The notes beneath the pieces are model-generated. The model did not search any database, was not told the DNA's origin, and worked only from the letters and a program-made list of their open reading frames with translations. A program made the position numbers and the translations under genes. Positions 1,260 to 44,633 of a stretch of 64,000 nt of DNA are shown here, piece after piece. Each line of letters starts with the position of its first letter. Positions within the stretch are counted from its first letter, which is position 1. The stretch is from an uncultured Spirochaetales bacterium (GTDB lineage: Bacteria > Spirochaetota > Spirochaetia > DSM-27196 > DATKUC01). The DNA lies in NCBI GenBank assembly GCA_964577375.1, contig CAZNYW010000017.1, positions 887 through 64,886 on the forward strand. The letters run 5' to 3'.

Positions 1260-1289
1260 CGCTTCCATGTCGGGATAGTGCGGGTGACG

Positions 1290-2768
1290 ATGCAGAGCGA
1301 TCCGGTGAAACCCGATTCAGAAACAATGTCAGTCCTCGTGGTTGACGACGAAGATGGCATGCGCGAAGGAATGCGCAGAATCCTCGGACGAGTCGGCTAC
1401 CACGTCGCCGTTGCCGACGGCGGGGTCGAGGCGATCCGGATGATCGATTCCGGACAGTACGACCTTGCTCTCATCGATCTGCGGATGCCGGAGATCGACG
1501 GATTTGCAGTCACCGACTACATTGCTCGTCGGCCCGGCAACAAAACAATCGTGGTCATTGTATCCGCTCTTGCGACGGTCGAGGCCGCCGTCGAAACGAC
1601 GAGGAAAGGGGCCTTCGATTTCCTGGTGAAACCGTTTGCACCGGCGGATCTGCTTTCGGTTGTCGAACGGGCAGGGCGTCAGTGTCGCCTTCTCCAGGAG
1701 CATGAAAAGTACCTGGTCGAGCTCGACGGGGAGAGAAGCCTGTCGCGCTCACTCATCAACTCCATGCGAGAGGGCGTGATCGTGTTCAACCTGCGTCAGG
1801 AGGTGGTTCTTCTCAACCCGCGGGCTGAGTTCTACCTCGGCACGCGATATCGGTCCGGCATGACCTCCGGCGACCTCGGTTTCGATCCAGGGTTTCCCGA
1901 CATGGTTCGCGGCGTCCTTTCCGGTGACTCCGGCGAAAAGCTGCTCGATCAGGAGATCGGGGAGCAGCGCGTTCGGACACGGATTACTCCCTACGTCCGC
2001 GGCCAGGAGGTCGGCGGCGCCATTGTTCTTCTTCACGATTTTACCGAGGAATGGCGCGCCGAGCAGGACAAGAACCGGTTTGTATCGATGGTGGCCCACG
2101 AGCTGCGCGGTCCGCTTGCGGCGATTCTGAACTACCTCAACCTGATCCTCGATCACTCGGTCGACGACGAACCGGAACGGGTTCGCGAGCTTCTCGAGCG
2201 CAGCAGGAAGCGCGGAGAGGCGCTTCTCGAGCTCGTCGGCGACCTTCTGTTTCTGAACAAACGCAATGCAGGCAAAGCAGAAAAGTCACTCGAAATACTC
2301 GATCTTTCGGAAGTGCTCACGGATGAGGTTGCGTTTGTCGAAGGCCACGCCCAGCGGGCAAACGTTACTGTACGATACGCGGCTCAGGAGGAAAGCTTTC
2401 CGTTCCTCGCAGACCGCGGCGATCTGGATCGCATATTCCTCAACCTGATGTTCAACGGCATAAAGTACAACCGGCCGGGCGGTTCGCTTTCGATAACGAT
2501 CCGGCGGACCGACGACGGACACTGGTTCGAAGTATCGTTCCGTGACACGGGAATCGGAATGACCGACGAAGAGATGAAAAATCTCTTCCAGGATTTCTTT
2601 CGCGTGCTCAACAGCAAGACAAAATCGATACCCGGAACCGGCCTCGGGCTGTCGACCGCAAAGAGAGTACTCTCCGAATACAACGGGCGGATCACCGTCG
2701 AGTCAAAACCCGATGAGGGCTCGACCTTCACGGTGCTGCTGCCGACGAGGGATTCTCTCAATGGCTGA
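1290..2768 (+). CDS. Hybrid sensor: response-regulator receiver + PAS + HisKA/HATPase_c histidine kinase
   Basis: Receiver signature VLVVDDEDG...LALIDLRMPEIDGF...LVKPF. PAS-like SLINSMREGVIVFN. H-box VAHELRGPL. N/G boxes NLMFNGIKYN, DTGIGM, GTGLGLS. Start is uncertain (GTG 1278, ATG 1290 or ATG 1326). Confidence 0.85.
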   Translation: MQSDPVKPDSETMSVLVVDDEDGMREGMRRILGRVGYHVAVADGGVEAIRMIDSGQYDLALIDLRMPEIDGFAVTDYIARRPGNKTIVVIVSALATVEAAVETTRKGAFDFLVKPFAPADLLSVVERAGRQCRLLQEHEKYLVELDGERSLSRSLINSMREGVIVFNLRQEVVLLNPRAEFYLGTRYRSGMTSGDLGFDPGFPDMVRGVLSGDSGEKLLDQEIGEQRVRTRITPYVRGQEVGGAIVLLHDFTEEWRAEQDKNRFVSMVAHELRGPLAAILNYLNLILDHSVDDEPERVRELLERSRKRGEALLELVGDLLFLNKRNAGKAEKSLEILDLSEVLTDEVAFVEGHAQRANVTVRYAAQEESFPFLADRGDLDRIFLNLMFNGIKYNRPGGSLSITIRRTDDGHWFEVSFRDTGIGMTDEEMKNLFQDFFRVLNSKTKSIPGTGLGLSTAKRVLSEYNGRITVESKPDEGSTFTVLLPTRDSLNG

Positions 2769-5175
2769 TCGGGGAGAGAATCCGGGTTCGCCGCAGAGCG
2801 AGTTCATGCGGCTTCTTTCTCACCAGATGAAGGCTCCTGTGCACGCGGTCCAGGCGCTGCTCCAGTCCATCTTCGACGCTCACAGTCAGGAGGTCCCTGC
2901 GTCGGTGAAGGATGCTCTCGAGCGCGCAATCTCCCGTGCCGGGGAAGCGGGTCGTATCGTCGACGACCTGCTCGAGTATCAGTCCTACGAGAGCGGCAGG
3001 AAGAAGGATCACCGGGATTTTGATGTCGTCGGTCTGGTGTCCGACCTTGGTCTCCGGTTTTCTCTCGGCGCGGCAGCGAAGGAGGTTAGCATCGATGTCG
3101 CGCTTCCCGAGAACCTGGCGGTCTTCGTTACCGGCGTGAGAACGGGAGTCGAGCACGCAATTCGGAACCTCATCGACAATGCCGTCAAGTATTCACCGCC
3201 TCTCGGCCGGGTGGAGATCGCGGTCGTGCTCGACGAATCGGAAAAGCGTGTACGAATCTCAGTGAGCGATGCCGGCGCCGGAATCCCGAAGACGGAGATC
3301 GAGCAGCTGTTCACGCCGTTCTTCCGCTCGAAGTCGCACGTGGCGAACACAGGCGGGACAGGCCTCGGCCTTGCGCTGACGGCGAGAATTGTCGAGGCGC
3401 ACAACGGAACGGTCCAGGTATCGTCGGAGGAGGGGAAGGGGACTACCTTCACGGTCACGCTTCCGGCTGAAAGGATAGAGCGGCTGCCTGACCGCCGTGT
3501 GCGTCGACGCAGAGTGGTCATCGTCGGCGGGGTGACATCCGGACCGAAGGCCGCGTCGAGGCTTCGTCGCCTTTCCGAAGATCTCGATATCACGATCGTG
3601 GAGCGCAACGAATTCCTTTCCTATTCGGGCTGCCAGCTTCCCTTCTTCATCCGCGATTCGATCGCGCACGATAGACTCCCTTCTCAGGCCGAGCGTCCTG
3701 CAGTCTCCTCTCACGGGACTCGTACCGCGCACTTCTTTGATGCCATGAAGAACATCACAGTGCTGAATCTAACCTCTGCCGATGAGATCGACCGTAAATC
3801 GAAAAGCCTTCGTGTGAAGCGGAGGAAGGATGGGTCGATTTTCCACGTTCCGTATGACGTTCTGATTCTCGCGACGGGCTCGGTTCCGGTCGTGCCGTCG
3901 GTTCCCGGCGGCGCGGAGGACCTCGTGTTCCCGCTGCACAGCCTCGAGGATGCGAAACGCATCACCGAGCGGCTCGGACGTGAGAACGCGCAGGACGTTA
4001 TCATCGTTGGCGGCGGACTCATCGGCGTGTCGGTCATAGAGGCTTTGGTGGCAACAGGGGCGCGGGTCACGCTGGTCGAGCGTGAATTGAACATCCTCAG
4101 CACATATTTCGATCCCGATTTTGCCGGAAAGATCGAGAACGAGCTCACGCGAAAGGGCGTGAAGGTCGCCACCGGTACTGCGATCACGTCGGTGTCACCG
4201 GTTGAAGGCGGTGTCGTCGCCCATTCGCCGGACCGTACATTCAGAGGTGATTTCGTCATCCTCAGCAGCGGCATGCGTCCGAACACTGATCTCGCCCGCG
4301 CAGCCGGGCTTGCTCTCGGGGAGACCGGGGGAATACAGGTCGACGAAGAGTTGCGCACGAGCGATCCGGACATCTTTGCGGTGGGAGACTGCGCGGAAAC
4401 GCGTCACCTGCTTACGGGACGCCACGAGTACTGGCCGCTCGGTGCCATTTCGATGAAGATGGGGCACATAGCAGCCGATGTCGTGGCCGGCAAGCGCGCC
4501 GTCTACCCCGGGTCGCTCGGCTCGGTTCTTCTCGGCTGCGTAGACCAGCAGTTCGGTCGAACCGGAGTCACCTCCGCGAGTGCGAGGTCGGCCGGGTTCG
4601 ACCCTGTCTCTTTCGTCCTCGCGGGGCCGGAGAGGCCGGGCTACGCTGCAGCGTCGACCGACATCTTCCTCAAAGTCATTGCCGATCGCCCGACACGGCG
4701 CATCATCGGCGTACAGGCTTTCGGCACCGGCGACGTCGGATCGAAGGTCTCCCTCTTTGCCACGGCAATTGCGAACGGGGTGACCACCGAGGGGATGTTT
4801 GTGCTCGATCTCGGTCACGCGCCGGAGTTCAACCATCCCATCGACATCGTCCAGGCCGCCTGCATGATGCTGAACAACAAGATGGACGGCCTCATCGAGA
4901 CGATTTCGGTTTCCGAGTTCGAGCGCGGCCGCGGCGGCCTTACCGCGGCGGCCATCGTCACGCCCGACCTGTCGTTACGGTATCTCATACCGGGGAGCGT
5001 CGAGATCACGCCGGAAAATCTGCGAAGGGAACACCTCCCCTTCGGGGAGCAGGAGCAGGTAATGCTCTACAGCCGGACATCAATGGAAGCCTACCAGGCG
5101 TATCGGTACCTCGTGCAGCGCGGGTATTCCGGCGTTCGCGTTCTCGAGGGTGGTTCTCTCTTCTGGTCGGAATAG
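2761..5175 (+). CDS. Histidine kinase fused to a CoA-disulfide-reductase/NADH-oxidase-type FAD oxidoreductase and a C-terminal rhodanese-like domain
   Basis: H-box LLSHQMKAP and G-boxes DAGAGI / GTGLGLAL. Then GxGxxG VVIVGGVTSGPKAA, redox Cys motif SYSGCQLPF (Cys at nt 3631-3633), a second dinucleotide fold IIVGGGLIGVS and AVGDCA. The C-terminal rhodanese-like fold is ...VMLYSRTSMEAY...VLEGG. ATG 2761 overlaps the upstream stop (2768). Confidence 0.8.
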   Translation: MADRGENPGSPQSEFMRLLSHQMKAPVHAVQALLQSIFDAHSQEVPASVKDALERAISRAGEAGRIVDDLLEYQSYESGRKKDHRDFDVVGLVSDLGLRFSLGAAAKEVSIDVALPENLAVFVTGVRTGVEHAIRNLIDNAVKYSPPLGRVEIAVVLDESEKRVRISVSDAGAGIPKTEIEQLFTPFFRSKSHVANTGGTGLGLALTARIVEAHNGTVQVSSEEGKGTTFTVTLPAERIERLPDRRVRRRRVVIVGGVTSGPKAASRLRRLSEDLDITIVERNEFLSYSGCQLPFFIRDSIAHDRLPSQAERPAVSSHGTRTAHFFDAMKNITVLNLTSADEIDRKSKSLRVKRRKDGSIFHVPYDVLILATGSVPVVPSVPGGAEDLVFPLHSLEDAKRITERLGRENAQDVIIVGGGLIGVSVIEALVATGARVTLVERELNILSTYFDPDFAGKIENELTRKGVKVATGTAITSVSPVEGGVVAHSPDRTFRGDFVILSSGMRPNTDLARAAGLALGETGGIQVDEELRTSDPDIFAVGDCAETRHLLTGRHEYWPLGAISMKMGHIAADVVAGKRAVYPGSLGSVLLGCVDQQFGRTGVTSASARSAGFDPVSFVLAGPERPGYAAASTDIFLKVIADRPTRRIIGVQAFGTGDVGSKVSLFATAIANGVTTEGMFVLDLGHAPEFNHPIDIVQAACMMLNNKMDGLIETISVSEFERGRGGLTAAAIVTPDLSLRYLIPGSVEITPENLRREHLPFGEQEQVMLYSRTSMEAYQAYRYLVQRGYSGVRVLEGGSLFWSE

Positions 5176-5360: not shown

Positions 5361-7172
5361 ATGGGGAGTCCCATCCAGCGGAGTGCGGAAACAGTCTGCG
5401 CTCAGCGCCACAACGACCGAACCCGCCTTATGGACATCGTCAGAGCTCTCCACGCCGAACACGGCTTCATGGACGACGACGCTATCGAGACCGTCGCCGC
5501 CCGGCTGGGCGTTCATCGCGTGGAAGTCGAGAGCATGCTGACGTTCTACTCGTTCTTCTCGCGGAAAAAACGGGGAAAACTTGTCATTCGGCTCTGCAAC
5601 GACGTCATCGACCGGATGAACGGGGCCGACCTGGTTGCCGATGCATTCCGGGAGCAGCTGGGCATCGATTTCGGGGAGACCACCCCCGACGGCAGAATCA
5701 CGCTCGAGCACACGCCGTGCATCGGGATGAGCGATCAGGCTCCTGCCGCTCTGGTGAACGACGAGGTGGTGACCTATCTTTCGACCGACCGCGTCAAGGA
5801 GATCGTAGCGATTCTCCGGCACACGGATGATGCGCACAAACTGGTCCATCGGCTCGGCGACGGGCAGAATGCGCACGATCTCATTCGCTCCATGGTGCAC
5901 AACAACGTTCGTCGCAGAGGTGAGGTCATATTCGGCTCGCACGAGGCAAACAACACCGGCCTCGCGAAGGCACTCGTGATGAGCCCGGTGGAAGTCATAA
6001 ACGAAATCAAGACCGCCCGCCTGCGGGGTCGCGGTGGGGCCGGCTTCCCGACGGGCCTCAAGTGGGAGTTCACACGCGGCGCCGAAGGCGAAAAGAAATA
6101 CGTCATCTGCAACAGCGACGAGGGCGAGCCGGGTACGTTCAAGGATCGAGTGCTTCTTACCGAGTTTCCCGATCGGATACTCGAAGGGATGACGATCGCC
6201 GGCTACGCGATAGGGGCGCAGATGGGACTGCTCTACCTTCGCGGTGAGTATGCATACCTGTATCGATACCTGGCAACGGTGCTCGAGGAGAGGCGGTCCA
6301 ACGGCCTCCTCGGCACGAACATCATGGGAAAGGATTTCTCCTTTGACGTTCGAATCGAGCTGGGGGCGGGAGCCTACATATGTGGCGAGGAGACCGCGCT
6401 GATAAGCTCGCTCGAAGGCACTGCCGGCCTGCCCAAGACGAAACCGCCGTTCCCGGCGCAGGAGGGATTTCTCAGCCGACCGACCGCCGTAAACAATGTT
6501 GAGACACTCTGCGTCGTTCCCGACATTCTCGACCGCGGCGCCGCCTGGTTCGCCGGGATCGGATCGAAGAACAGCTCCGGAACGAAGCTCCTGAGCGTAG
6601 CGGGAGATTGCGCGCGGCCCGGTATCTACGAGTATCCCTTCGGTGTGACCGTCGCCCAGATCCTCAAGGATACCGGGGCCGAGGATACCTACGCGGTACA
6701 GGTCGGCGGCGCATCGGGCCAGATGATCAACGAGACGGACTTCCGGCGCTCGATCTCTTACGAGGATCTTGCAACCGGCGGTTCCGTCATGATCTTCGAT
6801 CGTACCCGTGACATCCTCGACGCGGTGAAGAGCTTCATGGAGTTCTTCGTCGACGAGAACTGCGGATACTGCACGCCGTGCAGGGCGGGAAACCGCCTGA
6901 TGCTCGCCATCCTCGACCGCATCATCAAGGGCAATGGCGCGCCGGAAGACCTTGACACGTTGAAACGCATCGGCAACTCGGTGAAGATTGCCAGTCGCTG
7001 CGGGCTCGGGCAGACCTCGCCCAATCCCATCCTCAGTTCGATCGAAAAATTCGCTCCGGCTTACGAGAAGCTGATGAAGAAGAGCGGGGCGCTGCGGGCC
7101 TCTTTCGACATCGAGAGCGCACTGGCAGAGTCGTCGAAGATATCAGGGCGCCGTTCGACGGTCCTGTCCTGA
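5361..7172 (+). CDS. hoxF: NAD-reducing [NiFe] hydrogenase diaphorase subunit HoxF (NuoE-like domain + NuoF-like FMN/NADH/[4Fe-4S] module)
   Basis: GRGGAGFPTGLKW (FMN/NADH site), SRCGLGQT and CGYCTPCR cluster motifs. N-terminal thioredoxin-like NuoE-type region. GGAGG lies 7 nt upstream of the ATG. Confidence 0.9.
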   Translation: MGSPIQRSAETVCAQRHNDRTRLMDIVRALHAEHGFMDDDAIETVAARLGVHRVEVESMLTFYSFFSRKKRGKLVIRLCNDVIDRMNGADLVADAFREQLGIDFGETTPDGRITLEHTPCIGMSDQAPAALVNDEVVTYLSTDRVKEIVAILRHTDDAHKLVHRLGDGQNAHDLIRSMVHNNVRRRGEVIFGSHEANNTGLAKALVMSPVEVINEIKTARLRGRGGAGFPTGLKWEFTRGAEGEKKYVICNSDEGEPGTFKDRVLLTEFPDRILEGMTIAGYAIGAQMGLLYLRGEYAYLYRYLATVLEERRSNGLLGTNIMGKDFSFDVRIELGAGAYICGEETALISSLEGTAGLPKTKPPFPAQEGFLSRPTAVNNVETLCVVPDILDRGAAWFAGIGSKNSSGTKLLSVAGDCARPGIYEYPFGVTVAQILKDTGAEDTYAVQVGGASGQMINETDFRRSISYEDLATGGSVMIFDRTRDILDAVKSFMEFFVDENCGYCTPCRAGNRLMLAILDRIIKGNGAPEDLDTLKRIGNSVKIASRCGLGQTSPNPILSSIEKFAPAYEKLMKKSGALRASFDIESALAESSKISGRRSTVLS

Positions 7173-7192
7173 ACGAATAGAGGGAGACACGT

Positions 7193-7906
7193 ATGGCGGA
7201 CACCTTTACGTTCAATATTGACGGCACGGAAGTCACGGGCGCTCCGGGTCAGACCATAATGGAAGCGGCGGACGAGGCGGGCGTCTACATTCCGCGCCTC
7301 TGCACGATGAAGGGACTCAAGACCCTCGGAAGCTGCCGGGTTTGTACGGTCCTTGTCGACGGCCGGCCACAGGCCGCCTGCACGCAGCCGGCTGCTGCGG
7401 GAATCAACGTCGACAACGATACCGAGAAGCTCAACGCAATTCGACGCGACATCATCGAGTTGCTCTTCGTGGAGGGCAATCACTTCTGCATGTTCTGCGA
7501 GAAAAGCGGCAACTGCGAGCTGCAGGCGGCCGCGTATCGGCTCGGGATAGCGGCGCCCGAACTGCCCTATCTCTATCCCAAACGAGAAATCGACGCGACT
7601 CACCCGGAGGTTCTGATAGAACGGAACCGGTGCATTCTGTGCGGCCGGTGCGTCACCTCCTCCGAATACGCCGACGGTAAACATGTGTTCGATTTTGTCG
7701 GCAGAGGTTCCGATCGCAGGATTGCGGTCGATTCCCGGGGCGACCTCTCTGACACCAGTCTGAAGTCGACCGACAGGGCGGTGGAGGTGTGTCCCGTCGG
7801 CGCAATTCTCAAGAAGGGAACGGCGTACGCGACGCCGATCGGACGGCGGACATACGATGCGCAGCCGATCGGGGCCGACATCGAGGAGCGAGGAGGACGA
7901 ACATGA
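7193..7906 (+). CDS. hoxU: NAD-reducing hydrogenase diaphorase Fe-S subunit HoxU (NuoG N-terminal-like)
   Basis: 2Fe-2S ferredoxin motif CTMKGLKTLGSCRVC...C, His/Cys cluster HFCMFCEKSGNCELQ and 4Fe-4S motif CILCGRCV. The stop overlaps the hoxY ATG (ATGA at 7903-7906). Confidence 0.9.
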   Translation: MADTFTFNIDGTEVTGAPGQTIMEAADEAGVYIPRLCTMKGLKTLGSCRVCTVLVDGRPQAACTQPAAAGINVDNDTEKLNAIRRDIIELLFVEGNHFCMFCEKSGNCELQAAAYRLGIAAPELPYLYPKREIDATHPEVLIERNRCILCGRCVTSSEYADGKHVFDFVGRGSDRRIAVDSRGDLSDTSLKSTDRAVEVCPVGAILKKGTAYATPIGRRTYDAQPIGADIEERGGRT

Positions 7907-8448
7907 GCAAACCGAAGGTGGCGACTGCTTCGCTCGCCGGCTGTTTTGGCTGTCACATGTCCCTGCTCGACATAGACGAACGGATACTGCAGCTAATCGA
8001 CCTGGTTGATTTCGACAAATCGCCCATCGACGACATCAAGGAGTTCACCGGCCGCTGCCAGATCGGCCTTATCGAGGGTGGCTGCACCACCGACGAGAAT
8101 GTCCGTGTGCTCAAAAGCTTTCGTGAGCACTGCGACATCCTCATCTCGGTCGGGGACTGTGCTACCATGGGCGGTTTGCCTGCGCTTCGCAACACAGTTC
8201 CGCTGCGGGAATGTCTGGAAGAGGCCTATTTGAACGGTCCGACGGTCTACAACCCTGAGAAGAAGATACCGGGAGATCCGGAAATCCCGTTGATGCTCGA
8301 CAGGGTCTATCCCTGTCACGAAGTGGTAAAGATCGATTATTTCCTCCCCGGCTGCCCTCCCTCGGCTGACACGCTGTGGGAAGCGTTGACCGCACTTCTC
8401 AGTGATAAACCCGTGAAGCTGCCCTACTCACTGCTCAAGTACGATTGA
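7903..8448 (+). CDS. hoxY: [NiFe] hydrogenase small subunit, group-3 type (HoxY)
   Basis: Internal ATG of listed ORF 7789-8448. MSKPKVATASLAGCFGCHMS, GDCATMGG and PGCPP motifs typical of short cytoplasmic small subunits. Confidence 0.9.
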   Translation: MSKPKVATASLAGCFGCHMSLLDIDERILQLIDLVDFDKSPIDDIKEFTGRCQIGLIEGGCTTDENVRVLKSFREHCDILISVGDCATMGGLPALRNTVPLRECLEEAYLNGPTVYNPEKKIPGDPEIPLMLDRVYPCHEVVKIDYFLPGCPPSADTLWEALTALLSDKPVKLPYSLLKYD

Positions 8449-8467
8449 GCGGAAGGAGAAACAGACC

Positions 8468-9913
8468 ATGGCCCAGGAAGGTACTGCTTACAAGCGCGTC
8501 GTTATCGAACCGGTCACGAGGATCGAAGGACACGGCAAGGTCTCGCTTCTGCTCGACGAGTCGGGCGGCATACATCAGGCCCGATTCCACGTTGTCGAGT
8601 TCCGCGGATTCGAACGCTTCGTGCAGGGGCGCCCATACTGGGAAGCTCCCGTGCTGGTGCAGCGACTCTGTGGAATCTGCCCGGTGAGTCACCACCTCGC
8701 CGCGGCGAAAGCGATGGACCGAATTGTGGGCGCGGACAAGCTCACACCGACGGCGGAAAAGATGCGACGGCTGATGCACTACGGTCAGTTCTTTCAGTCG
8801 CATTCGCTGCACTTCTTCCACCTCGTTTCACCCGACCTCCTGTTCGGGTTCGAAGCGGATCCCGCGATCCGCAACGTCATCGGGGTGGCGAGAAAGTATC
8901 CCGACCTCGCCGTCCAGGGCGTCATGATGCGCAAGTTCGGACAGGAGATCATCAAGGCGACCGCCGGAAAGAAGATACACGGCACCGGGGCAATCCCGGG
9001 AGGCATAAACAAGAATCTTTCGATAGAGGAACGGGACTTTCTGTTGAAGGATATCGACCAGATGATCGAATGGTCGCGCGGCGCCGTGAAAATTGCCCGC
9101 GACTACACTGCCGAGAACGCGTCGCGGCTCGGCGAGTTCGCTGCCTTCGACTCGAATCACCTGTCTATAGTCCGTCCCGACGGGGCGCTCGAGATATACG
9201 ACGGTGAGCTGCGCGCGATCAGCGCCGACGGAAAGACGATCTTTGATCACGTGGACTGTCAGACCTTCCCGGAGTACCTTGCCGAAGAGGTTCGCGACTG
9301 GTCCTACATGAAGTTTCCGTTCATCCGGTCGCTCGGACCCGAGAAAGGGTGGTATCGCGTCGGGCCGCTTGCACGCGTCAACAACTGCAGCTTCATCGAC
9401 ACGCCCGAGGCCGAGGCTGCCAGAAAGGAATTCTACAAAACGCTCGGAGAAGGGCCATGCAACCTCACGATGGCTTATCACTGGGCGCGAATGATCGAGA
9501 CGCTGCACGCCGCTGAAAAGATTCGCGAACTGCTCAACGACAGCGACCTGCAGGGCAAGGACCTGACGGTGAAAGGCAAGCGGCGCAAAGTCGGTATCGG
9601 CGTGATCGAAGCGCCGCGCGGGACGCTCTTTCACTATTACGAGGTGGACAAGAACGACCAGATCGTGAGAGCGAATCTGATTGTCTCGACGACGAACAAC
9701 AACGAACCGATCAACAGGGCGGTCGCCGACGTGGCCGAGAAGGACCTCGCAGGCAAGGAGCTGACCGAAGGGCTTCTGAACCATATCGAGGTAGCGATTC
9801 GCGCATACGACCCCTGCCTTTCGTGTGCTACGCACGCGATGGGGCAGATGCCGCTTCTGGTGGAGCTCTACGATTCGAACAACCAGCTTCTCGACAGGAA
9901 GACCAAGGATTGA
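8468..9913 (+). CDS. hoxH: [NiFe] hydrogenase large subunit (HoxH)
   Basis: RIEGHG, N-terminal RLCGICPVSH and C-terminal DPCLSCATH Ni-Fe ligand motifs. A 24-aa C-terminal extension after the His matches a protease-processed precursor. Confidence 0.95.
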   Translation: MAQEGTAYKRVVIEPVTRIEGHGKVSLLLDESGGIHQARFHVVEFRGFERFVQGRPYWEAPVLVQRLCGICPVSHHLAAAKAMDRIVGADKLTPTAEKMRRLMHYGQFFQSHSLHFFHLVSPDLLFGFEADPAIRNVIGVARKYPDLAVQGVMMRKFGQEIIKATAGKKIHGTGAIPGGINKNLSIEERDFLLKDIDQMIEWSRGAVKIARDYTAENASRLGEFAAFDSNHLSIVRPDGALEIYDGELRAISADGKTIFDHVDCQTFPEYLAEEVRDWSYMKFPFIRSLGPEKGWYRVGPLARVNNCSFIDTPEAEAARKEFYKTLGEGPCNLTMAYHWARMIETLHAAEKIRELLNDSDLQGKDLTVKGKRRKVGIGVIEAPRGTLFHYYEVDKNDQIVRANLIVSTTNNNEPINRAVADVAEKDLAGKELTEGLLNHIEVAIRAYDPCLSCATHAMGQMPLLVELYDSNNQLLDRKTKD

Positions 9914-10383
9914 CCGAAACTGCGGAGCAGACAGTTCTGGTACTCTGCTACGGCAATCCGGCGCGCGAGGACGACGGGCTCGGGCCGGCGGTCGCCGAGA
10001 TGCTGGCGTCGTCTCCCATGGCGGGGGCGAGAGTCGAATCCAACTATCAGCTTCTGGTCGAGGATGCGGTAGCCGTCTCGGAGGCGTCACTCGTCGTCTT
10101 TGTGGACGCTGCCGCGGCGGGACCTGAACCCTTCGAGTTTCGGACAATCGAACCGGGCGAGACCGGCGGGTACATGGCGCATAGCATTGGGCCGGCGCAG
10201 CTTCTCGGGCTTGCCCGCGAGTTGTTCGGCAGGTCGCCCGTGGCATACATGCTTGCGATCCGCGGGTACTCGTTCGAGATGTTCCACGAGGGGCTCTCGC
10301 GCCGGGCGTCCGAAAACCTCTCCCGCGCGACAGAATACCTGCGCGAGTTTGTGCGTGCGAGGGTTGTCGAGGAGGTAACATGA
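9910..10383 (+). CDS. hoxW: Hydrogenase maturation endopeptidase (HoxW/HycI family)
   Basis: VLVLCYGNPAREDDGLGPAV signature and position directly after hoxH. Start taken as TTG 9910, overlapping the hoxH stop; the start is uncertain. Confidence 0.8.
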   Translation: MTETAEQTVLVLCYGNPAREDDGLGPAVAEMLASSPMAGARVESNYQLLVEDAVAVSEASLVVFVDAAAAGPEPFEFRTIEPGETGGYMAHSIGPAQLLGLARELFGRSPVAYMLAIRGYSFEMFHEGLSRRASENLSRATEYLREFVRARVVEEVT

Positions 10384-10393
10384 GGAGGCAGCG

Positions 10394-10771
10394 ATGAGGG
10401 AGGGCAAGTTCGTTGTTCTGGCGATCGATGACGACGAGGACGTCTTGTATGCTCTTCGGATAGTGCTGGAAAAGAACGGCTACGTCATGTCCGAGGCCCA
10501 TTCGGCCGAAACTGGCGTTCGCTCTTTCAAGAATGAACGACCGGACTTCATCATAGTCGATCTGATGATGGAATCGATCGACGCGGGCAAGAACCTGGTG
10601 AAGGAACTGAAGTTCCTGGGCAATGAGGCTCCGGTGTACATGCTCTCTTCGGTCGGCGACGAGCTGTCGGGAAATGTCGACGTTCGGGAGCTCGGCCTTC
10701 AGGGAGTGTTCCAGAAGCCGATTAACAACGATGTTCTCCTCAAGACCCTGGAGCGGAAGCTTAAGAAGTAG
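10394..10771 (+). CDS. Single-domain response-regulator receiver (CheY-like), last gene of the hox operon
   Basis: VVLAIDDDED, phospho-acceptor context FIIVDLMM, and MLSS / FQKP conserved positions. 125 aa with no output domain. Confidence 0.85.
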   Translation: MREGKFVVLAIDDDEDVLYALRIVLEKNGYVMSEAHSAETGVRSFKNERPDFIIVDLMMESIDAGKNLVKELKFLGNEAPVYMLSSVGDELSGNVDVRELGLQGVFQKPINNDVLLKTLERKLKK

Positions 10772-11498
10772 CGATCAGCGCTTCGAGTGCCGGTGCGAGG
10801 AATGCTGCGAAACGTCCCTCGACGAGTTCCTCGGGCTTTCCAATTTCGTCTTCGATTTCGGGCGTGTAGGGGATCTTTCCGAGCAGCGTCAATCCTCGGT
10901 CCGGCGGCAGAGGTGTCGGAGTGGTCTGGTCGTCGCGTACCATGTTGAGGATGCATCCGGCCGGATGCACGCGCCCGGCGTTCAGCACCTCCGCAAGCCG
11001 CTCCATTATGCGAAGAGACAGGGTGGATGCGCTCGAGACCAGCGCCACCCGGACTCGCGGAACGTACCGTGAAACGTCGAGAATCGCTTCGCCGATTCCC
11101 GGCGGCATGTCGATGACGAGCAGATCCAGAGAGCCCCATACGACCACTGCGAGCAGTTCCCGGATAGCGTCGGTAACCGCGTCCCCACGAAGTGCGACCC
11201 CTCGCTCGCCGGTAAACGGGGTTATTCCCATGTAGCGCAGCCCGAAGGCGGCTTCGAACGGCAGGATGCCGCCCTCTTCCTGCGGAAGGTGGGGATCGAT
11301 ACCGAGGATGAGATGGGCAGATGCACCGTGGAAATCGAGATCGAGCAGGCCCACTTTGCGGCCCGCCTTCGCGAGCAGCAGCGCAGCAGTTGCCGAGCAG
11401 CAGCTCTTGCCGACGCCGCCTTTTCCGCTGGCAAAGGCGAGAATCGTCGTTACCGATTGCAGCCGGTGCTGGATGATGGAAACCCGGGGGTCGCTCAT
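10761..11498 (-). CDS. Mrp/MinD-family P-loop ATPase (ApbC/NBP35-like), probable [NiFe]-hydrogenase Ni-insertion partner of HypA
   Basis: Deviant Walker A ASGKGGVGKS. Internal ATG 11498 of listed ORF 10761-11576 forms ATGA with the hypA stop. The 3' end overlaps the convergent receiver gene by 11 nt. Confidence 0.75.
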   Translation of the reverse strand: MSDPRVSIIQHRLQSVTTILAFASGKGGVGKSCCSATAALLLAKAGRKVGLLDLDFHGASAHLILGIDPHLPQEEGGILPFEAAFGLRYMGITPFTGERGVALRGDAVTDAIRELLAVVVWGSLDLLVIDMPPGIGEAILDVSRYVPRVRVALVSSASTLSLRIMERLAEVLNAGRVHPAGCILNMVRDDQTTPTPLPPDRGLTLLGKIPYTPEIEDEIGKPEELVEGRFAAFLAPALEALIATS

Positions 11499-11923
11499 TG
11501 AGCCTCTTGCCTCGGTTGCGGCTCGTTGAGCTCTATCGACGCCAGCGTGATTCCCCGCCCCTTTGTGACCTGGCAATCGGCACTACTGCACGAGGGGCAG
11601 TGCACGAAGGCGTGCGCGGCCTCGGGAAGAAAATGGATAGCTTCCCGGTGTTCATCGGTGAGGCCGTCCACTTGGTCGAATCCCCACTGATGGCCGCAGA
11701 CATTGCACCTGAAGCGAACGGGCTCGACAATGATGCGGACGGCATCGCGATCGTGCGGAACGTCGTCGAGCATGGTGGCAAGACCGTCCTCGAAAATCCC
11801 GCGGTCGATGTTCTGGAGCTCTCCGAAGACGAGGTTTACGGCGTGAAGTGTCGCGCCGGAATGGCCCGCCATTTCGTTTCTGATCGTCGCCGCGACGGAT
11901 TCGGCAAGTGCCCATTCGTGCAT
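11495..11923 (-). CDS. hypA: Hydrogenase nickel incorporation protein HypA
   Basis: Canonical N-terminus MHEWALAES (Ni-binding MHE) and zinc motifs CNVC...CPSC. Internal ATG of listed ORF 11495-11995. Confidence 0.9.
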   Translation of the reverse strand: MHEWALAESVAATIRNEMAGHSGATLHAVNLVFGELQNIDRGIFEDGLATMLDDVPHDRDAVRIIVEPVRFRCNVCGHQWGFDQVDGLTDEHREAIHFLPEAAHAFVHCPSCSSADCQVTKGRGITLASIELNEPQPRQEAQ

Positions 11924-12013
11924 GGAGCTATAGTAGCTCCTATTGCAGACAAGGGAAAGTGCGGATAGCATTGAATCGGCCAACAGTAGCATCATCTTAG
12001 CGGAAGGTTTCCC

Positions 12014-14335
12014 GTGAGCGAGGCTGACGAAATCCGGAGAGTACGAATCACCTATCGAGGAATTGTTCAGGGAGTCGGGTTCCGGCCCTCGGTCTATCGC
12101 TGCGCAGTCGCGTGCGGTCTCGACGGTTTCGTGCAGAACCGGCGGTCCGAGGTCGTCGCCGAGCTTCAGGGAGCTGCCGTTTCGATCGCCAGGTTCGAGA
12201 AGATGATGTCGCAGAACCTGCCTGCTCCTGCGAGAATCGAATCGACGAAAACAGATCAGATAGAGCTGCGAAAGAACTCCGGTTTTCGGATCGCCGAGAG
12301 CAGCAACTCCAGTTACATTTTCCCGCCGATTCCTCCGGACATCGCGATGTGCGACGCCTGCCGGCGAGAGCTTCTCGATCCGTCGAACAGGCGGTATCTG
12401 TATCCGTTCATAACATGTACCGAATGCGGTCCACGCTATTCAATTGTCGAAGATACGCCGTTCGATCGTGAGAGAACGTCCATGGCGGATTTCTCGCAGT
12501 GCGGCGCGTGCCGGGCCGAATACTCAGAACCTGCCGACCGTCGATTTCATTCGCAGACCAACGCGTGCGCGGAGTGCGGTCCGGTTCTGCACCTGGTGAC
12601 CGCCGCCGGACGCGCCGTGTCCGGTGATCCTCTTTCGGCGGCGGTGGAGGCGCTGGCAGGCGGCAAGGTGGTCGCTCTGCAGGGTATCGGCGGCTTTCAT
12701 CTCGCTGCCGATCCACGGTTTCCCGAGGCGGTCGCGCGTCTTCGGCTGGTGAAGAGCCGCCGGGCGAAGCCGTTTGCGCTCATGGTGCGCGACGTCGCCG
12801 AAGCGGCCGAGCTGTGCGAGCTCTCGTCGTCGGACCGGAAACTCCTCACTTCGCCGGCGAGCCCGATCATCATTCTGCCTGCGAAGGACCCCTCACCAGC
12901 GCACCTGGCCTCCGTTTCGGATCTGGGTACGCTCGGCATCATGGTACCGTACAGCCCGCTGCATTACCTTCTTTTCTTCCACCCCGGACTGCAGATTCCC
13001 TACCGGCACCTGATCATGACCAGCGGCAACCTCGGCGAGGAGCCGATCATCATCGACGAGGCGGAGGCTCGGGCGAAGCTTTCGGAGTCTGCGGACCTCT
13101 TCCTGTGCCACAATCGCCGCATACTTCTTTCGACCGACGATTCGGTCATGAGGCCTTTGCCCCCACGTGTCGGGGGCCACCATCTGGTTCGCCGTTCGCG
13201 TGGATTCGTGCCGCAGACGATCCGGGTGGCAGGGCGGGTTGCCGTACCCACGCTCGCAGCCGGAAGCGACCTCAAGAGTGCGCCCGCGCTCGGTCGGGAA
13301 CGATCGGTTCTTGTCGCGCCTCATCTCGGTGACCTTTCGAACCCTGAGAGCCGCGCTGCCTACGTCCGGACGGTTGATCAGATGCAGAGGCTGTTTGGAG
13401 GCGCGCCCTCCCGGGTGGTTTTCGATCTGCATCCTGGCTACTTCAGCTCCGGGTGGGCGATGGAGTCCTCGATTGTGCAGAAGGTGGCGGTGCAGCATCA
13501 TTACGCGCACGTGCTGTCGGTGATGGCCGAACATGGCCTCGAAGAATCGATCGGCATAGCGTTCGACGGCACCGGTTTCGGAAGCGACGGAGCAATCTGG
13601 GGCGGCGAGTTCCTGCACGCAACCCGAATGCAATTCCGGCGGCTGGGCAGCCTGCGAAGTTTTGCATTGCCGGGGGGTGAGGCTGCTATCCGCAAACCGG
13701 CGAGGATCGCCTTCTCGCTTCTGCACGGCCGCGGTGAGGTCGGCTCAGCAGACGGAACGATTGACAGGATAGGTGAAGCTGAAGCGGAGCTCCTTTCGCA
13801 GATGATCGAACAGTCACTAAACAGTCCGCTCACCTCGTCTGCGGGCAGACTGTTCGATGCGGCGTCTGCTCTTCTGGGGCTGGTCGACGAGGTAAGCTAC
13901 GAGGGTGAGGGAGCGATGAAGCTCGAAAGCGCCGCCGCCGGTGCGGCGGGCAGAGAGCGGAACGTTGACGGTCTTTTCGAAGATCTCGTACCGCTCGAGC
14001 CGGATTCAGGCGCGTCCGAGCCGTTTCTCTTCGACTTCAGACCGCTCTTTCGAGAGCTGGTGCGTAGCCGTTCATCTGAACGCGATTCCCTTTCGCTCCT
14101 GTTTCACGAGGCGATGGCGAGCGCAATTGTCAGAGGCGCGTCCGTCCTGCGGGAACGCACCGGACTCAGTACGCTCTGCCTCGCGGGCGGTGTCTTTCAG
14201 AATGCTTTGCTGTGGGAGCTTATACTGCCGGCGCTCGACCGGCAGAATTTCACGGTCTGCAGCAACCTCGCGGTCCCTCCCGGTGACGGCGGACTTGCCG
14301 TCGGACAGGCGTGGTATGCAGGCGACGGAGGTTGA
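12014..14335 (+). CDS. hypF: Carbamoyltransferase HypF
   Basis: Acylphosphatase-like N-terminus (GIVQGVGFRPSVYR), paired CxxC zinc fingers (CDACRREL, CTECGPRYS, CGACRAEY, CAECGP), then YrdC-like and Kae1-like regions. GTG start preceded by GGAAGG. Confidence 0.95.
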   Translation: MSEADEIRRVRITYRGIVQGVGFRPSVYRCAVACGLDGFVQNRRSEVVAELQGAAVSIARFEKMMSQNLPAPARIESTKTDQIELRKNSGFRIAESSNSSYIFPPIPPDIAMCDACRRELLDPSNRRYLYPFITCTECGPRYSIVEDTPFDRERTSMADFSQCGACRAEYSEPADRRFHSQTNACAECGPVLHLVTAAGRAVSGDPLSAAVEALAGGKVVALQGIGGFHLAADPRFPEAVARLRLVKSRRAKPFALMVRDVAEAAELCELSSSDRKLLTSPASPIIILPAKDPSPAHLASVSDLGTLGIMVPYSPLHYLLFFHPGLQIPYRHLIMTSGNLGEEPIIIDEAEARAKLSESADLFLCHNRRILLSTDDSVMRPLPPRVGGHHLVRRSRGFVPQTIRVAGRVAVPTLAAGSDLKSAPALGRERSVLVAPHLGDLSNPESRAAYVRTVDQMQRLFGGAPSRVVFDLHPGYFSSGWAMESSIVQKVAVQHHYAHVLSVMAEHGLEESIGIAFDGTGFGSDGAIWGGEFLHATRMQFRRLGSLRSFALPGGEAAIRKPARIAFSLLHGRGEVGSADGTIDRIGEAEAELLSQMIEQSLNSPLTSSAGRLFDAASALLGLVDEVSYEGEGAMKLESAAAGAAGRERNVDGLFEDLVPLEPDSGASEPFLFDFRPLFRELVRSRSSERDSLSLLFHEAMASAIVRGASVLRERTGLSTLCLAGGVFQNALLWELILPALDRQNFTVCSNLAVPPGDGGLAVGQAWYAGDGG

Positions 14336-14336
14336 T

Positions 14337-14570
14337 ATGTGCCTTGCGGTACCCCTACAGGTAGAGGAGATTCTCGATGCGCGAACTGCGGTGGTTGCGC
14401 AGGGCAGCTTTCGTCTCACCGTCGACATCTCCATGGTGGAGGACGCGGCTCCCGGCGATTTCGTCATCGTACATGCCGGCTTTGCCATAGAAAAACTCGA
14501 CGAACAGTCCGCACAGAAAACGCTCGCACTGTTCGACGACTTCCGGGCGGCGAATGAAGATGCAACCTGA
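14337..14570 (+). CDS. hypC: Hydrogenase assembly chaperone HypC
   Basis: MCLAVP N-terminus, 77 aa. Internal ATG of listed ORF 13941-14570, 1 nt after the hypF stop. Confidence 0.9.
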   Translation: MCLAVPLQVEEILDARTAVVAQGSFRLTVDISMVEDAAPGDFVIVHAGFAIEKLDEQSAQKTLALFDDFRAANEDAT

Positions 14571-15657
14571 TCTCGCGTTTCGCGACCGGGAGCGGGCTGC
14601 CGGCATAGTCGCCCGGATCAGAGAGATCGCGGGGCGGCTCGGCCGGGACATTCGCATCATGGAGGTGTGCGGCACACACACAGTTTCGCTTCGCAGACAT
14701 GGCATTCACTCGCTTCTGCCGCGGACCGTCCGACTTGTATCCGGGCCCGGCTGTCCGGTCTGCGTCACCCCCTCCGGCTTCGTGGCAAATGCGCTGCGAC
14801 TGATCGAGAAACGAGGCGTGACGGTCGCCACTTTCGGCGACATGGTGAAAGTTCCCGACCCGGAGGGAAGGAGTCTTTCGAGCTATCTCGGATCCGGAAG
14901 GGTGCGCATCGTGTACTCACCTCTCGAGCTTCTTGAGCTCGCGGAAGAGGTCCCGGGACCGACAGTGTTTCTCGGCATAGGGTTCGAGACAACGATCCCC
15001 GCAATCGCCTCGGTTTTTGAACGGGCCCGGCAGCAGGGGATCCGCGAACTGTACCTCTACTCGGCGTTCAAGACGGTGCCGAGAGCTCTGCGTGCACTCG
15101 TGACGGATCCCGAATGCGCAATAGACGGTTTTCTGCTTCCGGGCCACGTCTCGGTTGTCATCGGTCTCGACCCATACCGTTTCCTTGCCGGTGAGTTCGG
15201 CCTGCCCGGCGTCGTCGGTGGTTTCGAGCCGGTCGACATGCTCGGGGCAATTCTCGGCATTCTGAGTCAACTCGAAAGCGGGGTGAGCGCAATCGAGAAC
15301 GCCTATCCGCGCGCGGTGAGAGACGACGGCAACCCGGCCGCGCGCGCCGTAGTGAACCGGACGCTCGTCGAATCGGATGCCGTATGGCGTGGTCTTGGCC
15401 GCATCGACGGGAGCGGACTCCGGCTTCGCGAGGAGTATGCAGACATGGACGCCGGCCGTGTCTTTTCGCTTCCGGAGGTCGTTGATCGCGATCCGCCGGG
15501 TTGTCTGTGCGGCCGGGTCATCCAGGGCAAGGTGACCCCGCCCGAGTGCCCGCTTTTCGGCCGCCGGTGCACACCCGACAGGCCGGTTGGACCATGTATG
15601 GTATCTTCAGAGGGAACCTGCGCGGCCTACCTCAAGTACCGGGAGGAGTCTGCATGA
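14554..15657 (+). CDS. hypD: Hydrogenase maturation protein HypD
   Basis: CGTHT, GPGCPVCV and C-terminal CxxxP Cys motifs. Overlaps hypC by 17 nt (alternative ATG at 14560). Confidence 0.95.
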   Translation: MKMQPDLAFRDRERAAGIVARIREIAGRLGRDIRIMEVCGTHTVSLRRHGIHSLLPRTVRLVSGPGCPVCVTPSGFVANALRLIEKRGVTVATFGDMVKVPDPEGRSLSSYLGSGRVRIVYSPLELLELAEEVPGPTVFLGIGFETTIPAIASVFERARQQGIRELYLYSAFKTVPRALRALVTDPECAIDGFLLPGHVSVVIGLDPYRFLAGEFGLPGVVGGFEPVDMLGAILGILSQLESGVSAIENAYPRAVRDDGNPAARAVVNRTLVESDAVWRGLGRIDGSGLRLREEYADMDAGRVFSLPEVVDRDPPGCLCGRVIQGKVTPPECPLFGRRCTPDRPVGPCMVSSEGTCAAYLKYREESA

Positions 15658-16676
15658 ACGGTCACGAGCACGATCTCATCACCCTCGAGCACGGAAGCGG
15701 GGGAGCACTCTCACGTGAGCTCGTCGAACAGATAGTGTATCCCTGCTTTCACGGCGAGGCCTATCCGGAGCTCGCTGATTCCACCCGTTTCACGCTTACC
15801 GGAACGGTGTGTATGACCACCGACAGCTACACGGTAGATCCTCCCTTCTTTCCCGGCGGCGACATTGGACGGCTCGCGGTGCACGGTACGTGCAACGATC
15901 TCGCCGTCGCCGGTGCCGTACCCCGTTTCCTGAGTCTTGGTCTGATTGTGGAGGAGGGGTTCGCAGTTGCCGATCTGTCGCGTCTGCTTCGGTCGGTGAG
16001 CTCCGCTGCAGAGGAAACGGACGTCGCCGTCGTAACAGGCGACACGAAGGTGGTCCCTCGCGGCAAGGGCGGAGGGATCTACATCAACACTGCCGGGATC
16101 GGTGAGTTTCGAGCGCATCCGGCGCTCTCGGCGGCTTCAATCGAAGAGGGCGACGCCGTGCTGGTGTCGGGCCCGATCGGTGCCCACGGAATCGCCGTCA
16201 TGGCGGCACGCGAAAAGCTTCGAGTCGGTTCAGCCGTACAGTCCGACTGCGCGCCGCTCCTTCCGCTGTGCACGTCACTGGTCGCTTTCGGGAACGAGCT
16301 TCGTTTCATGCGGGATGCCACTCGCGGCGGAGTCGCCGCCGTCCTCAACGAGGCGATCTCCGGTCGGGAAATCGGGATGGAGATTGCAGAGGAGCTCCTG
16401 CCGGTAGACGCGACGGTTCAATCGGTTGCAGACATTCTGGGCCTGAGCCCGCTCGAAATAGCAAATGAAGGGGTCCTCGTCGCGGTTGTGTCGAATCGCA
16501 TCGCACAGGAGGCGGTCGCCTCTCTGCGGGCGAATGCTATCGGCCGTCGGGCGGCGGTTGTCGGCAGGATAGTCGGCGGGGGAGGACACAGCGGGTCGGT
16601 GGTGCTCGAGACGGCGGTCGGTGGGCGGCGGATTGTCGACCTGCCGAGGGGGCTCCTTCTTCCGAGGATCTGCTAG
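15654..16676 (+). CDS. hypE: Hydrogenase maturation protein HypE
   Basis: Internal ATG (MNGHEHDLITLEHGSGG) forms ATGA with the hypD stop. PurM-like fold signature and C-terminal PRIC motif. Confidence 0.95.
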   Translation: MNGHEHDLITLEHGSGGALSRELVEQIVYPCFHGEAYPELADSTRFTLTGTVCMTTDSYTVDPPFFPGGDIGRLAVHGTCNDLAVAGAVPRFLSLGLIVEEGFAVADLSRLLRSVSSAAEETDVAVVTGDTKVVPRGKGGGIYINTAGIGEFRAHPALSAASIEEGDAVLVSGPIGAHGIAVMAAREKLRVGSAVQSDCAPLLPLCTSLVAFGNELRFMRDATRGGVAAVLNEAISGREIGMEIAEELLPVDATVQSVADILGLSPLEIANEGVLVAVVSNRIAQEAVASLRANAIGRRAAVVGRIVGGGGHSGSVVLETAVGGRRIVDLPRGLLLPRIC

Positions 16677-18085: not shown

Positions 18086-18114
18086 TTGACCGTGATATTC
18101 CTTGGTGGTAGAGT
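18086..18114 (+). promoter_or_regulatory. Candidate sigma70-type promoter for smc (TTGACC-N17-TAGAGT)
   Basis: Hexamers read from the sequence in the divergent SOR-smc intergenic region. Confidence 0.4.
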
Positions 18115-18142
18115 AAATCTGCGCTTTTTCGAAAACTGGGAG

Positions 18143-21542: not shown

Positions 21543-21616
21543 CGATACGGAAATGCAGGTGAATGCCCGGTGGGCATGAATCGAGTGTGACCGCAATGCC
21601 ATCACGGGAGGGGACG

Positions 21617-44386: not shown

Positions 44387-44613
44387 GCGGCAATCACCTT
44401 TCCGTCCGGATGAACGGACGCGAAGTCACGGCACTCTATCTGCTGCTGCGACGGGAAGAGGACAGACTCGACGAGGAGCTGCTTTCTCTCCTTGGCCGCA
44501 TCGAAGAGATGCTCTTTTCGAGACTTTCGATCGACGAGATGGAGCGTATCGACGATCTGTACCGGAGCGGAGTGAACGTGTTCGACGCCGGAGACGACGT
44601 CTCCCCGGCGTGA
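44383..44613 (+). CDS. Hypothetical 76-aa acidic protein, translationally coupled to the MBL-fold gene
   Basis: ATGA overlap with the upstream stop. No recognisable motif. Confidence 0.45.
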   Translation: MSGNHLSVRMNGREVTALYLLLRREEDRLDEELLSLLGRIEEMLFSRLSIDEMERIDDLYRSGVNVFDAGDDVSPA

Positions 44614-44633
44614 ACAGAATCCGGAGAAAACCA

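Follow-up and report, generated by a model that had tools for sequence, protein, structure and literature searches.

We analyzed a 64-kb stretch of DNA (64,000 nucleotides; hereafter, the window) from an uncultured Spirochaetales bacterium, in which hypA, encoding a long nickel metallochaperone, is followed on the minus strand by the gene of a P-loop ATPase of 245 amino acids (aa), and found that this ATPase is very probably a functional bacterial orthologue of the ATPase-type HypB (HypB_AT) and the partner of HypA. As such, it is a bacterial member of an already known type of HypB, and the mechanism itself is not new. Reviews still call the ATP-hydrolysing HypB archaeal (PMC12134894, 2025; PMC13202556, 2026), and no description of an ATPase-type HypB in bacteria was found in the literature that we searched, which lacked Sasaki et al. 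(2013). An initial annotation of the window had proposed an ATP-dependent HypA partner of the Thermococcus type for this bacterium, and the proposal is now backed by sequence, fold, phylogeny, motifs, the type of HypA and synteny. The positions of all genes of the cluster are listed in Table 1.

We compared the ATPase with all PDB sequences using phmmer, and the best match was HypB(AT) of Thermococcus kodakarensis (Tk) (3vx3 and 5aun-5auq; 179.9 bits, E = 5.6e-52, residues 3-232), followed by an Archaeoglobus Mrp-like protein with 88 bits over residues 9-186 only. The AlphaFold2 model of the ATPase, which like the HypA model described below represents the protein alone, had a predicted local distance difference test (pLDDT) score of 83.4. 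In a Foldseek search with this model, the top 12 matches were all twelve chains of Tk HypB(AT) (5auo/5auq/5aup/5aun/3vx3), with template-modelling (TM) scores of 0.89-0.91 and root-mean-square deviations (rmsd) of 2.2-3.0 Å; after a gap, these were followed by AF2382 at a TM score of 0.75 and then by Cfd1, ApbC, MinD and NifH. Profile models assigned the ATPase only to the broad NUBPL/ParA P-loop family in Pfam (best match PF10609, NUBPL iron-transfer P-loop NTPase), and none of the NCBIfam equivalogs was passed: the score was 121.4 bits at a cut-off of 450 for MrpORP (NF041136), which covered the N-terminal two thirds alone, 84.3 bits at a cut-off of 348 for ApbC (NF008669), which matched the N-terminal part alone, 34 bits at a cut-off of 212.9 for MinD (TIGR01968) and 25.7 bits at a cut-off of 180 for NF041546. 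Identity to E. coli MinD was 22%. A MinD/ParA identity was accordingly ruled out by the sub-cut-off scores, and the neighbours are hyp and hox genes.

The deviant Walker A motif GKGGVGKS, already reported in the initial annotation, occupies residues 25-32. The signature K26, the P-loop K31, D53/D55 of switch I and D130 of switch II (D130-MPPG) are invariant in the family alignments, and the predicted protein holds all catalytic residues of a dimerising deviant-Walker-A ATPase. Motifs common to the members from the window ATPase through the Tk protein are the N-terminal DPR, LDLDFHGASxH, PxExxGxxP, LRG, ELL, W121 and DMPPGxG. Eleven discriminating residues are common to the ATPase and the Tk protein (D3, R12, L54, H62, P72, E74, G77, L102, E113, D140 and S157), and generic Mrp proteins have Pro, Trp and Gln at the positions of His62, Leu102 and Glu113, respectively; His62 (DNA about 11315-11313, minus strand) is invariant family-wide. 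The CxxC Fe-S motif is absent from the ATPase, whose only cysteines are C33, C34 and C182, and from nearly all of the approximately 245-aa family representatives. In E. coli Mrp and in ApbC-type matches of 345-367 aa (P0259, P0261, P0263 and P0267), the CxxC lies about 56 residues past the DxPPG motif. As outgroup, we used 80 generic Mrp/ApbC loci (≤ 40% identity) among the matches listed by a generic Walker-A genome scan. A split joining the window ATPase to Tk HypB(AT), and leaving out 33 CxxC-containing or generic Mrp proteins and MinD, was recovered in 181 of 200 neighbour-joining bootstraps. This was a constraint-type test, since exact-bipartition bootstrapping on the large clades gave 0-1% and was judged unsuitable. 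Thus, neither of the two observations named beforehand as speaking for a housekeeping carrier, namely a CxxC motif and clustering with ApbC/Mrp, was made for the ATPase.

The HypA encoded upstream is of the long type, and it passes the corresponding model (NF003008/PRK03824) with 128.6 bits at a cut-off of 125. Its best PDB match was TkHypA (3a43/5aun; 90.8 bits over the full length), whereas HypA of Helicobacter pylori scored about 22 bits. The protein carries the nickel motif M1-H2-E3 at the N-terminus and the zinc cysteines C73/C76/C109/C112, and an insertion of approximately 20 residues in the zinc domain, which E. coli HypA does not have, holds His97 (equivalent to Tk His98) within the sequence IHFLPE, aligned with IHFIPE in Tk. 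According to the passage of PMC7055735 that describes Watanabe et al. (2015), Tk His98 swings beside Met1-His2 upon binding of ATP-HypB(AT), resulting in a nanomolar nickel site. Judged by these residues, none of the four elements that make up the nickel site of the Thermococcus complex is missing from the window HypA. Moreover, MHE, the zinc cysteines, E94, H97, P100 and E101 were invariant in an alignment of 66 full-length paired HypAs (135-156 aa, barring two over-long open reading frames). The HypA model (pLDDT 91.7) was nearest to TkHypA of the HypAB complex (5aup_H and 5aun_A; rmsd 2.7-2.9 Å), and its rmsd to free monomeric TkHypA (3a43_A) was 5.3 Å; a resemblance to the HypB-bound more than to the free conformation is suggestive only.

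To obtain related loci, metagenomes were scanned with the family-specific pattern G[LI]LDLDx[HQ]GA, which yielded 80 loci with a total of 470 kb. A hypA gene was located directly upstream of the ATPase gene on the same strand at 73 of the 75 evaluable loci, or at 74 of them when L135, with a -4 junction, is counted. The exception was L104 (7693-8514), where the ATPase gene is divergent from hypF with no hypA upstream and where the protein has a short His/Ser-rich N-terminal extension, MKTRQETSASHSHSYLGEY, ahead of the DPR motif. In the control set of generic Mrp/ApbC loci, hypA was found less than 10 kb from the Mrp gene at only 1 of the 80 listed loci, and there it stands beside a GTPase hypB. 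The hypA-ATPase junctions were overlapping at 65 of 69 related loci, by 4 nt in 40 and by 8 nt in 20, indicating that the ATGA overlap seen on the minus strand of the window, as described in the initial annotation, is not the chance of one locus. These overlaps indicate that hypA and the ATPase gene are co-transcribed and translationally coupled. In addition, the distances among HypAs and among ATPases co-vary (Mantel r = 0.893; best of 1,000 permutations, 0.16).

The surroundings of the pair were diverse, as seen at six further loci. L089 exhibits full synteny with the window (72% identity), on the 1-Mb contig of L088 the pair stands by itself next to an ArsR-type regulator, L090 has it near an Mvh-type hydrogenase and Fur, L092 has it following SufBD, L094 has it beside NikR and a TonB receptor, and L175 belongs to a metagenome-assembled genome (MAG) labelled KSB1. 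At L094, the NikR gene (8713-9129) is convergent and directly follows the ATPase gene, and at L090, TusA (8993-9217) follows the pair and Fur (6400-6948) is upstream of it. We also clustered the neighbouring genes, leaving out the pair interval. Recurring neighbours were seen in a sub-clade from which the window is absent (L095-L174 and L088). There, an ArsR-family regulator is located directly upstream of the pair on the same strand at 22 loci, the divergent upstream genes are a class-V aminotransferase/cysteine-desulfurase-like gene at 20 loci and ThiI at 10 loci, and a hydrophobic protein of approximately 101 aa with no Pfam match is encoded directly downstream at 15 loci (example coordinates of these neighbours: L088, 6717-11182; L108, 4506-4811; L165, 2957-3313).

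We then considered whether a GTPase-type HypB is encoded near the pair. The initial annotation had held that no HypB of the SIMIBI class of GTPases is present in the window and had suggested that the ATPase takes its place. The first statement was borne out: in a phmmer --max search of E. coli HypB against all six-frame segments of the window, the best E value was 0.49, and the only other Walker-A proteins in the window are Ffh (23677-25005) and SMC (18086-20950). Likewise, no GTPase-type hypB was found at any of the 80 family loci (470 kb in all), though at least 12 of these carry hypF/C/D/E or a large-subunit gene. In the loci where other hyp genes are clustered at the pair (the window, L089, L095, L099, L130 and L157), hypB is the sole missing member, and the ATPase gene sits in the hypB position, right after hypA. 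Gene order therefore indicates that the ATPase takes the place of HypB in the hyp cluster of the window, and we infer that no GTPase HypB is encoded elsewhere in the genome. Replacement accordingly stands for the 64-kb window and the 470 kb of related loci. The gene is said to be 'conserved among species lacking the hypB gene'. For Thermococcales, the ATPase type is described from genomes without hypB where Sasaki et al. (2013) is cited in PMC13202556.

Several points weigh against the identification as HypB_AT. The identity to the Thermococcus protein is low, at about 41-43%, and the tree of 154 sequences was constructed by neighbour-joining on Kimura distances and not by maximum likelihood. 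Biochemical characterization of the family is confined to T. kodakarensis, the bacterial members being known from sequence. Cys34, right after the P-loop (C33-C34, DNA about 11402-11397, minus strand), is kept by 91% of the members from metagenomes, which are mostly of the spirochaete type, whereas Thermococcales and the remaining members have Val, Ile or Thr at this position; this spirochaete-clade residue is not found in Thermococcus, and details of the mechanism could thus differ. Finally, the absence of GTPase HypB covers the 64-kb window and the 470 kb of family loci rather than whole genomes.

The last point leaves room for the explanation that the ATPase is an auxiliary partner of HypA beside a canonical GTPase HypB encoded elsewhere, in other words, an addition and not a replacement. 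The pair is separated from the remaining hyp genes at most of the long family loci, so that hyp genes can be scattered over a genome, and a hypB might lie outside the sequences searched. However, this explanation is improbable in light of the clustered loci in which hypB alone is missing and its position is taken, the lack of any GTPase hypB around the 80 family members, the paired HypA, which is always of the long His97 type fitting the ATPase mechanism, and the Thermococcales genomes mentioned above (Sasaki 2013 as cited in PMC13202556).

Another explanation is that the pair forms a general module for nickel delivery or homeostasis that serves nickel enzymes besides, or instead of, [NiFe] hydrogenase. 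In many relatives, the pair stands alone by metal regulators (NikR at L094, Fur at L090 and ArsR-type at the 22 loci) and not by hydrogenase genes; HypA and HypB serve urease in H. pylori (PMC7055735), and they are linked with a putative nickel-dependent isoprene reductase in Acetobacterium (PMC10134865, as summarized in a preprint). In the window, however, the pair has the hox/protease genes on one side and hypFCDE on the other, which makes the hydrogenase the obvious client, and no genes for urease, carbon monoxide dehydrogenase or other nickel enzymes were found among the window open reading frames that were scanned. Moreover, the large-subunit scan of the related loci used a group-3 query only, so other hydrogenases near the pair may be missed. 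We therefore regard a role of this kind as rather less likely still for the window pair.

That the ATPase is a housekeeping Fe-S cluster carrier of the Mrp/ApbC/NBP35 type, adjacent to hypA by accident, might be read from its best Pfam match, from its weak best NCBIfam matches (MrpORP and ApbC) and from the database label 'iron-sulfur cluster carrier protein', which the orthologues of Thermococcus bear as well, but this is already contradicted and hardly credible given the lack of the cluster-bridging CxxC, the scores far below the equivalog cut-offs (121 vs 450 and 84 vs 348, over the N-terminal two thirds only), the separation from generic Mrp in 181/200 bootstraps, the frequency of a nearby hypA (74/75 family loci vs 1/80 listed generic Mrp loci) and the co-divergence with HypA (r = 0.89).

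With the ATPase taken as HypB_AT, its closest counterpart is the Tk protein (TK2007; 3vx3 and 5aun-5auq), with which it shares the Mrp/MinD-class fold (TM 0.89-0.91), the length (245 vs 248 aa), the deviant Walker A, the switch residues, the motifs DPR, LDLDFHGASxH, PEE..G..P and LRG, the lack of CxxC and the gene position directly after hypA (TK2008; 3a43), whose product likewise has the zinc-domain insertion and the His98-equivalent nickel ligand. The systems differ in that the host of the Tk protein is a hyperthermophilic archaeon, as opposed to the mesophile-like bacterium of spirochaete affinity here, in that Leu-Val just past the P-loop of the Tk protein corresponds to Cys33/Cys34 in the spirochaete clade, and in that the client here would be a Hox-type NAD-linked hydrogenase, with the window protein known from its sequence. 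The G3E GTPase HypB of E. coli, H. pylori and Methanocaldococcus occupies the same slot after hypA and is likewise presumed to be a nucleotide-gated partner of HypA. However, it belongs to an unrelated P-loop class with no detectable similarity (best E 0.49), and the window ATPase lacks the CH or CxxCGC metal sites and has a Walker A of the deviant KGG type. The GTPase HypB binds nickel and passes it to HypA, whereas the ATPase type, which lacks a nickel site, raises the affinity of HypA itself (PMC7055735, PMC13202556). The Mrp/ApbC/NBP35 carriers (E. coli Mrp, ApbC 8zkc, Cfd1 and AF2382/AF_226) are the nearest P-loop neighbours, with 28-37% identity, the Walker A GKGGVGKS and a DxPPGTGD-like switch II, but they have CxxC, often have an N-terminal FeS_assembly_P domain and are not linked to hypA. 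CooC and UreG are also dimerising P-loop NTPases that gate nickel delivery to a metalloenzyme (PMC9164220), but their nickel is held by Cys motifs at the dimer interface, and they need no HypA. We rejected the possibility that the window ATPase is CooC-like or UreG-like, since there was no such PDB sequence match at E ≤ 0.001 and no Cys-x-Cys motif.

By analogy with Thermococcus, a mechanism can be outlined for the window pair, with 5aun and the work summarized in PMC7055735 and PMC13202556 as the template. One translationally coupled message would give rise to the ATPase and its cognate long-type HypA. The ATP-bound ATPase would dimerise via the deviant Walker A, with Lys26 as the signature residue, and bind two HypA molecules. 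The binding would clamp the zinc-domain insertion of HypA such that His97 joins the amine, amide and imidazole ligands of Met1-His2, and the nickel affinity of HypA would increase from micromolar to nanomolar. Hydrolysis of ATP would then free Ni-HypA, which would dock on the HoxH precursor preloaded with Fe(CN)2CO by HypCDEF and deliver nickel, and the adjacent protease would last trim the C-terminus of HoxH after His. The ATPase would thus be a nucleotide-driven enhancer of HypA and no nickel carrier; ATP hydrolysis, complex formation and the nickel-affinity switch are all predicted here from the Thermococcus proteins. ATP binding and hydrolysis, the ATP-dependent 2:2 complex with HypA and a deletion defect rescuable by nickel are known for T. 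kodakarensis only (PMC7055735), and the mechanism together with the nickel-rescuable phenotype of delta-mmhypB is outlined in sections of PMC7055735, PMC13202556 and PMC9164220 that cite Sasaki 2013 and Watanabe 2015.

As the initial annotation had supposed, the host appears to be a spirochaete. The window contains a class-A bacterial RNase P RNA (266 bits) along with RpoD, DnaG, Ffh, SMC, RNase III and flagellin; the RNA, RpoD, DnaG, Ffh and flagellin identify the host as a bacterium, and the contig that holds the window is metagenomic. The nearest named relatives of both proteins, with identities of 73% and 70%, are found in a record that bears the name Salinispira pacifica, and the other named close matches are all Spirochaetia or Spirochaetales MAGs, so that all named close relatives belong to Spirochaetota. 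The paper on the Salinispira genome makes no mention of hyp genes. In a profile search of 1.8 billion representatives, 1,098 proteins were detected at E ≤ 1e-30, and approximately 130 full-length representatives of approximately 245 aa without CxxC outranked the first ApbC-type proteins; the family comprises at least about a hundred clusters at 50% identity. Named members elsewhere include those from Thermococcus, Pyrococcus, Euryarchaeota MAGs, Hadesarchaea and ANME-1-type archaea, as well as MAGs labelled candidate division KSB1 and Patescibacteria. Five over-long proteins also had high family-profile scores (P0135, 638 aa; P0144, 624 aa; P0234, 509 aa; P0194, 1334 aa; P0146, 361 aa), and three of these had CxxC and matched over two separate stretches, suggestive of Mrp-like domains that are fused or arranged in tandem.

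The suggestion that the pair had been acquired together with the hydrogenase found no support. The GC content of the cluster (0.60-0.62) is the same as that of the window, the relatives have the pair with hydrogenases of different types or with no hydrogenase within 10 kb, and the spirochaete sub-clade is deep, with 44-78% identity inside, 35-48% to all others and 43% to Tk. A recent horizontal transfer with the hydrogenase was rejected on the grounds of the missing GC anomaly and the depth of the sub-clade. In other parts of the family, the KSB1- and Patescibacteria-labelled members (P0441, P0449 and P0506) exhibit 60-63% identity to Euryarchaeota-MAG proteins (P0425 and P0432), compared with 35-40% to the spirochaete ones, which points to either inter-domain transfer or mis-binned contigs.

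The names seen for the family were all generic ('P-loop NTPase', 'ATP-binding protein involved in chromosome partitioning' and 'Mrp/NBP35 family'). The Thermococcus and Pyrococcus orthologues (P0419, P0428, P0438, P0448, P0488, P0519 and P0529) are also labelled 'Mrp/NBP35 family ATP-binding protein' by NCBI and 'Iron-sulfur cluster carrier protein' in UniRef, so the mis-annotation is family-wide and not bacterial only. The bacteria contain the same two-gene module, almost always joined to hypA by overlapping codons. Surveys of hydrogenase maturation that are scored by the presence of hypB will wrongly rate such organisms as incomplete, and heterologous expression of such hydrogenases would require both the ATPase and its cognate HypA. 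For annotation, we suggest that the name be given to Mrp-like proteins of approximately 245 aa with DPR and LDLDFHGASxH and without CxxC, encoded just downstream of a long HypA with IHFxPE. A broader reading, which we put at slightly below even chances, is that the ATPase-type HypB and the long His97 HypA constitute a second, ATP-driven route of nickel insertion in both domains and the sole HypB of many anaerobic bacteria (Spirochaetota and the MAGs labelled KSB1/Patescibacteria), which goes systematically unrecognized under the labels 'P-loop NTPase', 'chromosome partitioning ATPase' or 'iron-sulfur cluster carrier'. Under this reading, the pair of a large sub-clade belongs to an operon under ArsR control (arsR-hypA-hypB_AT-small membrane protein) that may allocate nickel to more than hydrogenase, and the spirochaete Cys34 together with the universal His62 might give a metal sensing unseen in the Thermococcus work.

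The gene inventory of the initial annotation (hypA, hypF, hypC, hypD, hypE and the maturation protease) agrees with the Pfam and NCBIfam matches in Table 1. The start of the ATPase was placed at ATG 11498 and not at the upstream TTG 11576, because all homologues begin with M-x-DPR. At its 3' end, the ATPase gene is overlapped by the response-regulator receiver gene by 11 bp, which leaves no room for a terminator there; the same arrangement is seen in the close relatives at L001/L002, L089 and L176. A scan of 10300-12200 for promoters and terminators gave nothing exceeding the shuffled expectation. The length of the maturation protease agrees with gene calls of 157-158 aa at L001 and L089, and its start codon, TTG, shares bases with the stop codon of hoxH (TTGA, 9910-9913), a second translational coupling in the cluster.

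Table 1. Features of the hydrogenase and maturation gene cluster (positions in the window).
Feature	Position	Strand	Basis
hypA, long Thermococcus-type nickel metallochaperone, 142 aa; start MHEWALAES, stop TGA 11497-11495	11495-11923	-	Pfam HypA, 68.5 bits; NCBIfam NF003008
Probable ATPase-type hypB (HypB_AT/mmHypB orthologue), 245 aa; start MSDPRVSII	10761-11498	-	PDB phmmer, fold search, bootstraps
ATGA overlap (ATPase ATG 11498-11496, hypA TGA 11497-11495)	11495-11498	-	Read from sequence
Shine-Dalgarno-like AAGAGG, 4 nt 5' of the ATPase ATG, within the hypA 3' end	11503-11508	-	Sequence; putative function
hypF (carbamoyltransferase), divergent from hypA, 90-bp spacer	12014-14335	+	TIGR00143, 682.5 bits
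hypC	14337-14570	+	TIGR00074, above cut-off
hypD	14554-15657	+	TIGR00075, above cut-off
hypE	~15650-16676	+	TIGR02124, above cut-off
NAD-linked hoxFUYH-type [NiFe] hydrogenase, whole cluster	5361-9913	+	Pfam matches
hoxF, fused NuoE/NuoF-like	5361-7172	+	Pfam
hoxU	7193-7906	+	Pfam
hoxY	within 7789-8448	+	Pfam
hoxH, C-terminal processing site DPCLSCATH|A	8468-9913	+	Pfam; L089 homologue carries PF27537 HoxH
Hydrogenase maturation endopeptidase (HoxW/HycI type)	9910-10383	+	TIGR00072, 74 bits
Stand-alone response-regulator receiver gene, convergent with the ATPase gene	10394-10771	+	Pfam Response_reg

Just upstream of the hox genes, an 820-aa protein is encoded at 2713-5175 on the plus strand, adjoining a hybrid response-regulator/histidine-kinase gene (1278-2768, plus strand). 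It combines a histidine-kinase core (HisKA and HATPase_c), a pyridine-nucleotide-disulfide oxidoreductase (Pyr_redox_2 with a dimerisation domain) and a C-terminal rhodanese, and the arrangement is kept at L089, where the protein has 784 aa. A role in regulating the hydrogenase, by sensing redox state or thiols, is conceivable. In other parts of the window, the open reading frames 20940-21542, 21563-23530, 27266-28468 and 39355-40272 (200, 655, 400 and 305 aa, respectively) had no Pfam match at E ≤ 1e-5, and a 1496-aa surface-type protein with FlgD-Ig, CHU_C and OmpA domains is encoded at 44208-48698.

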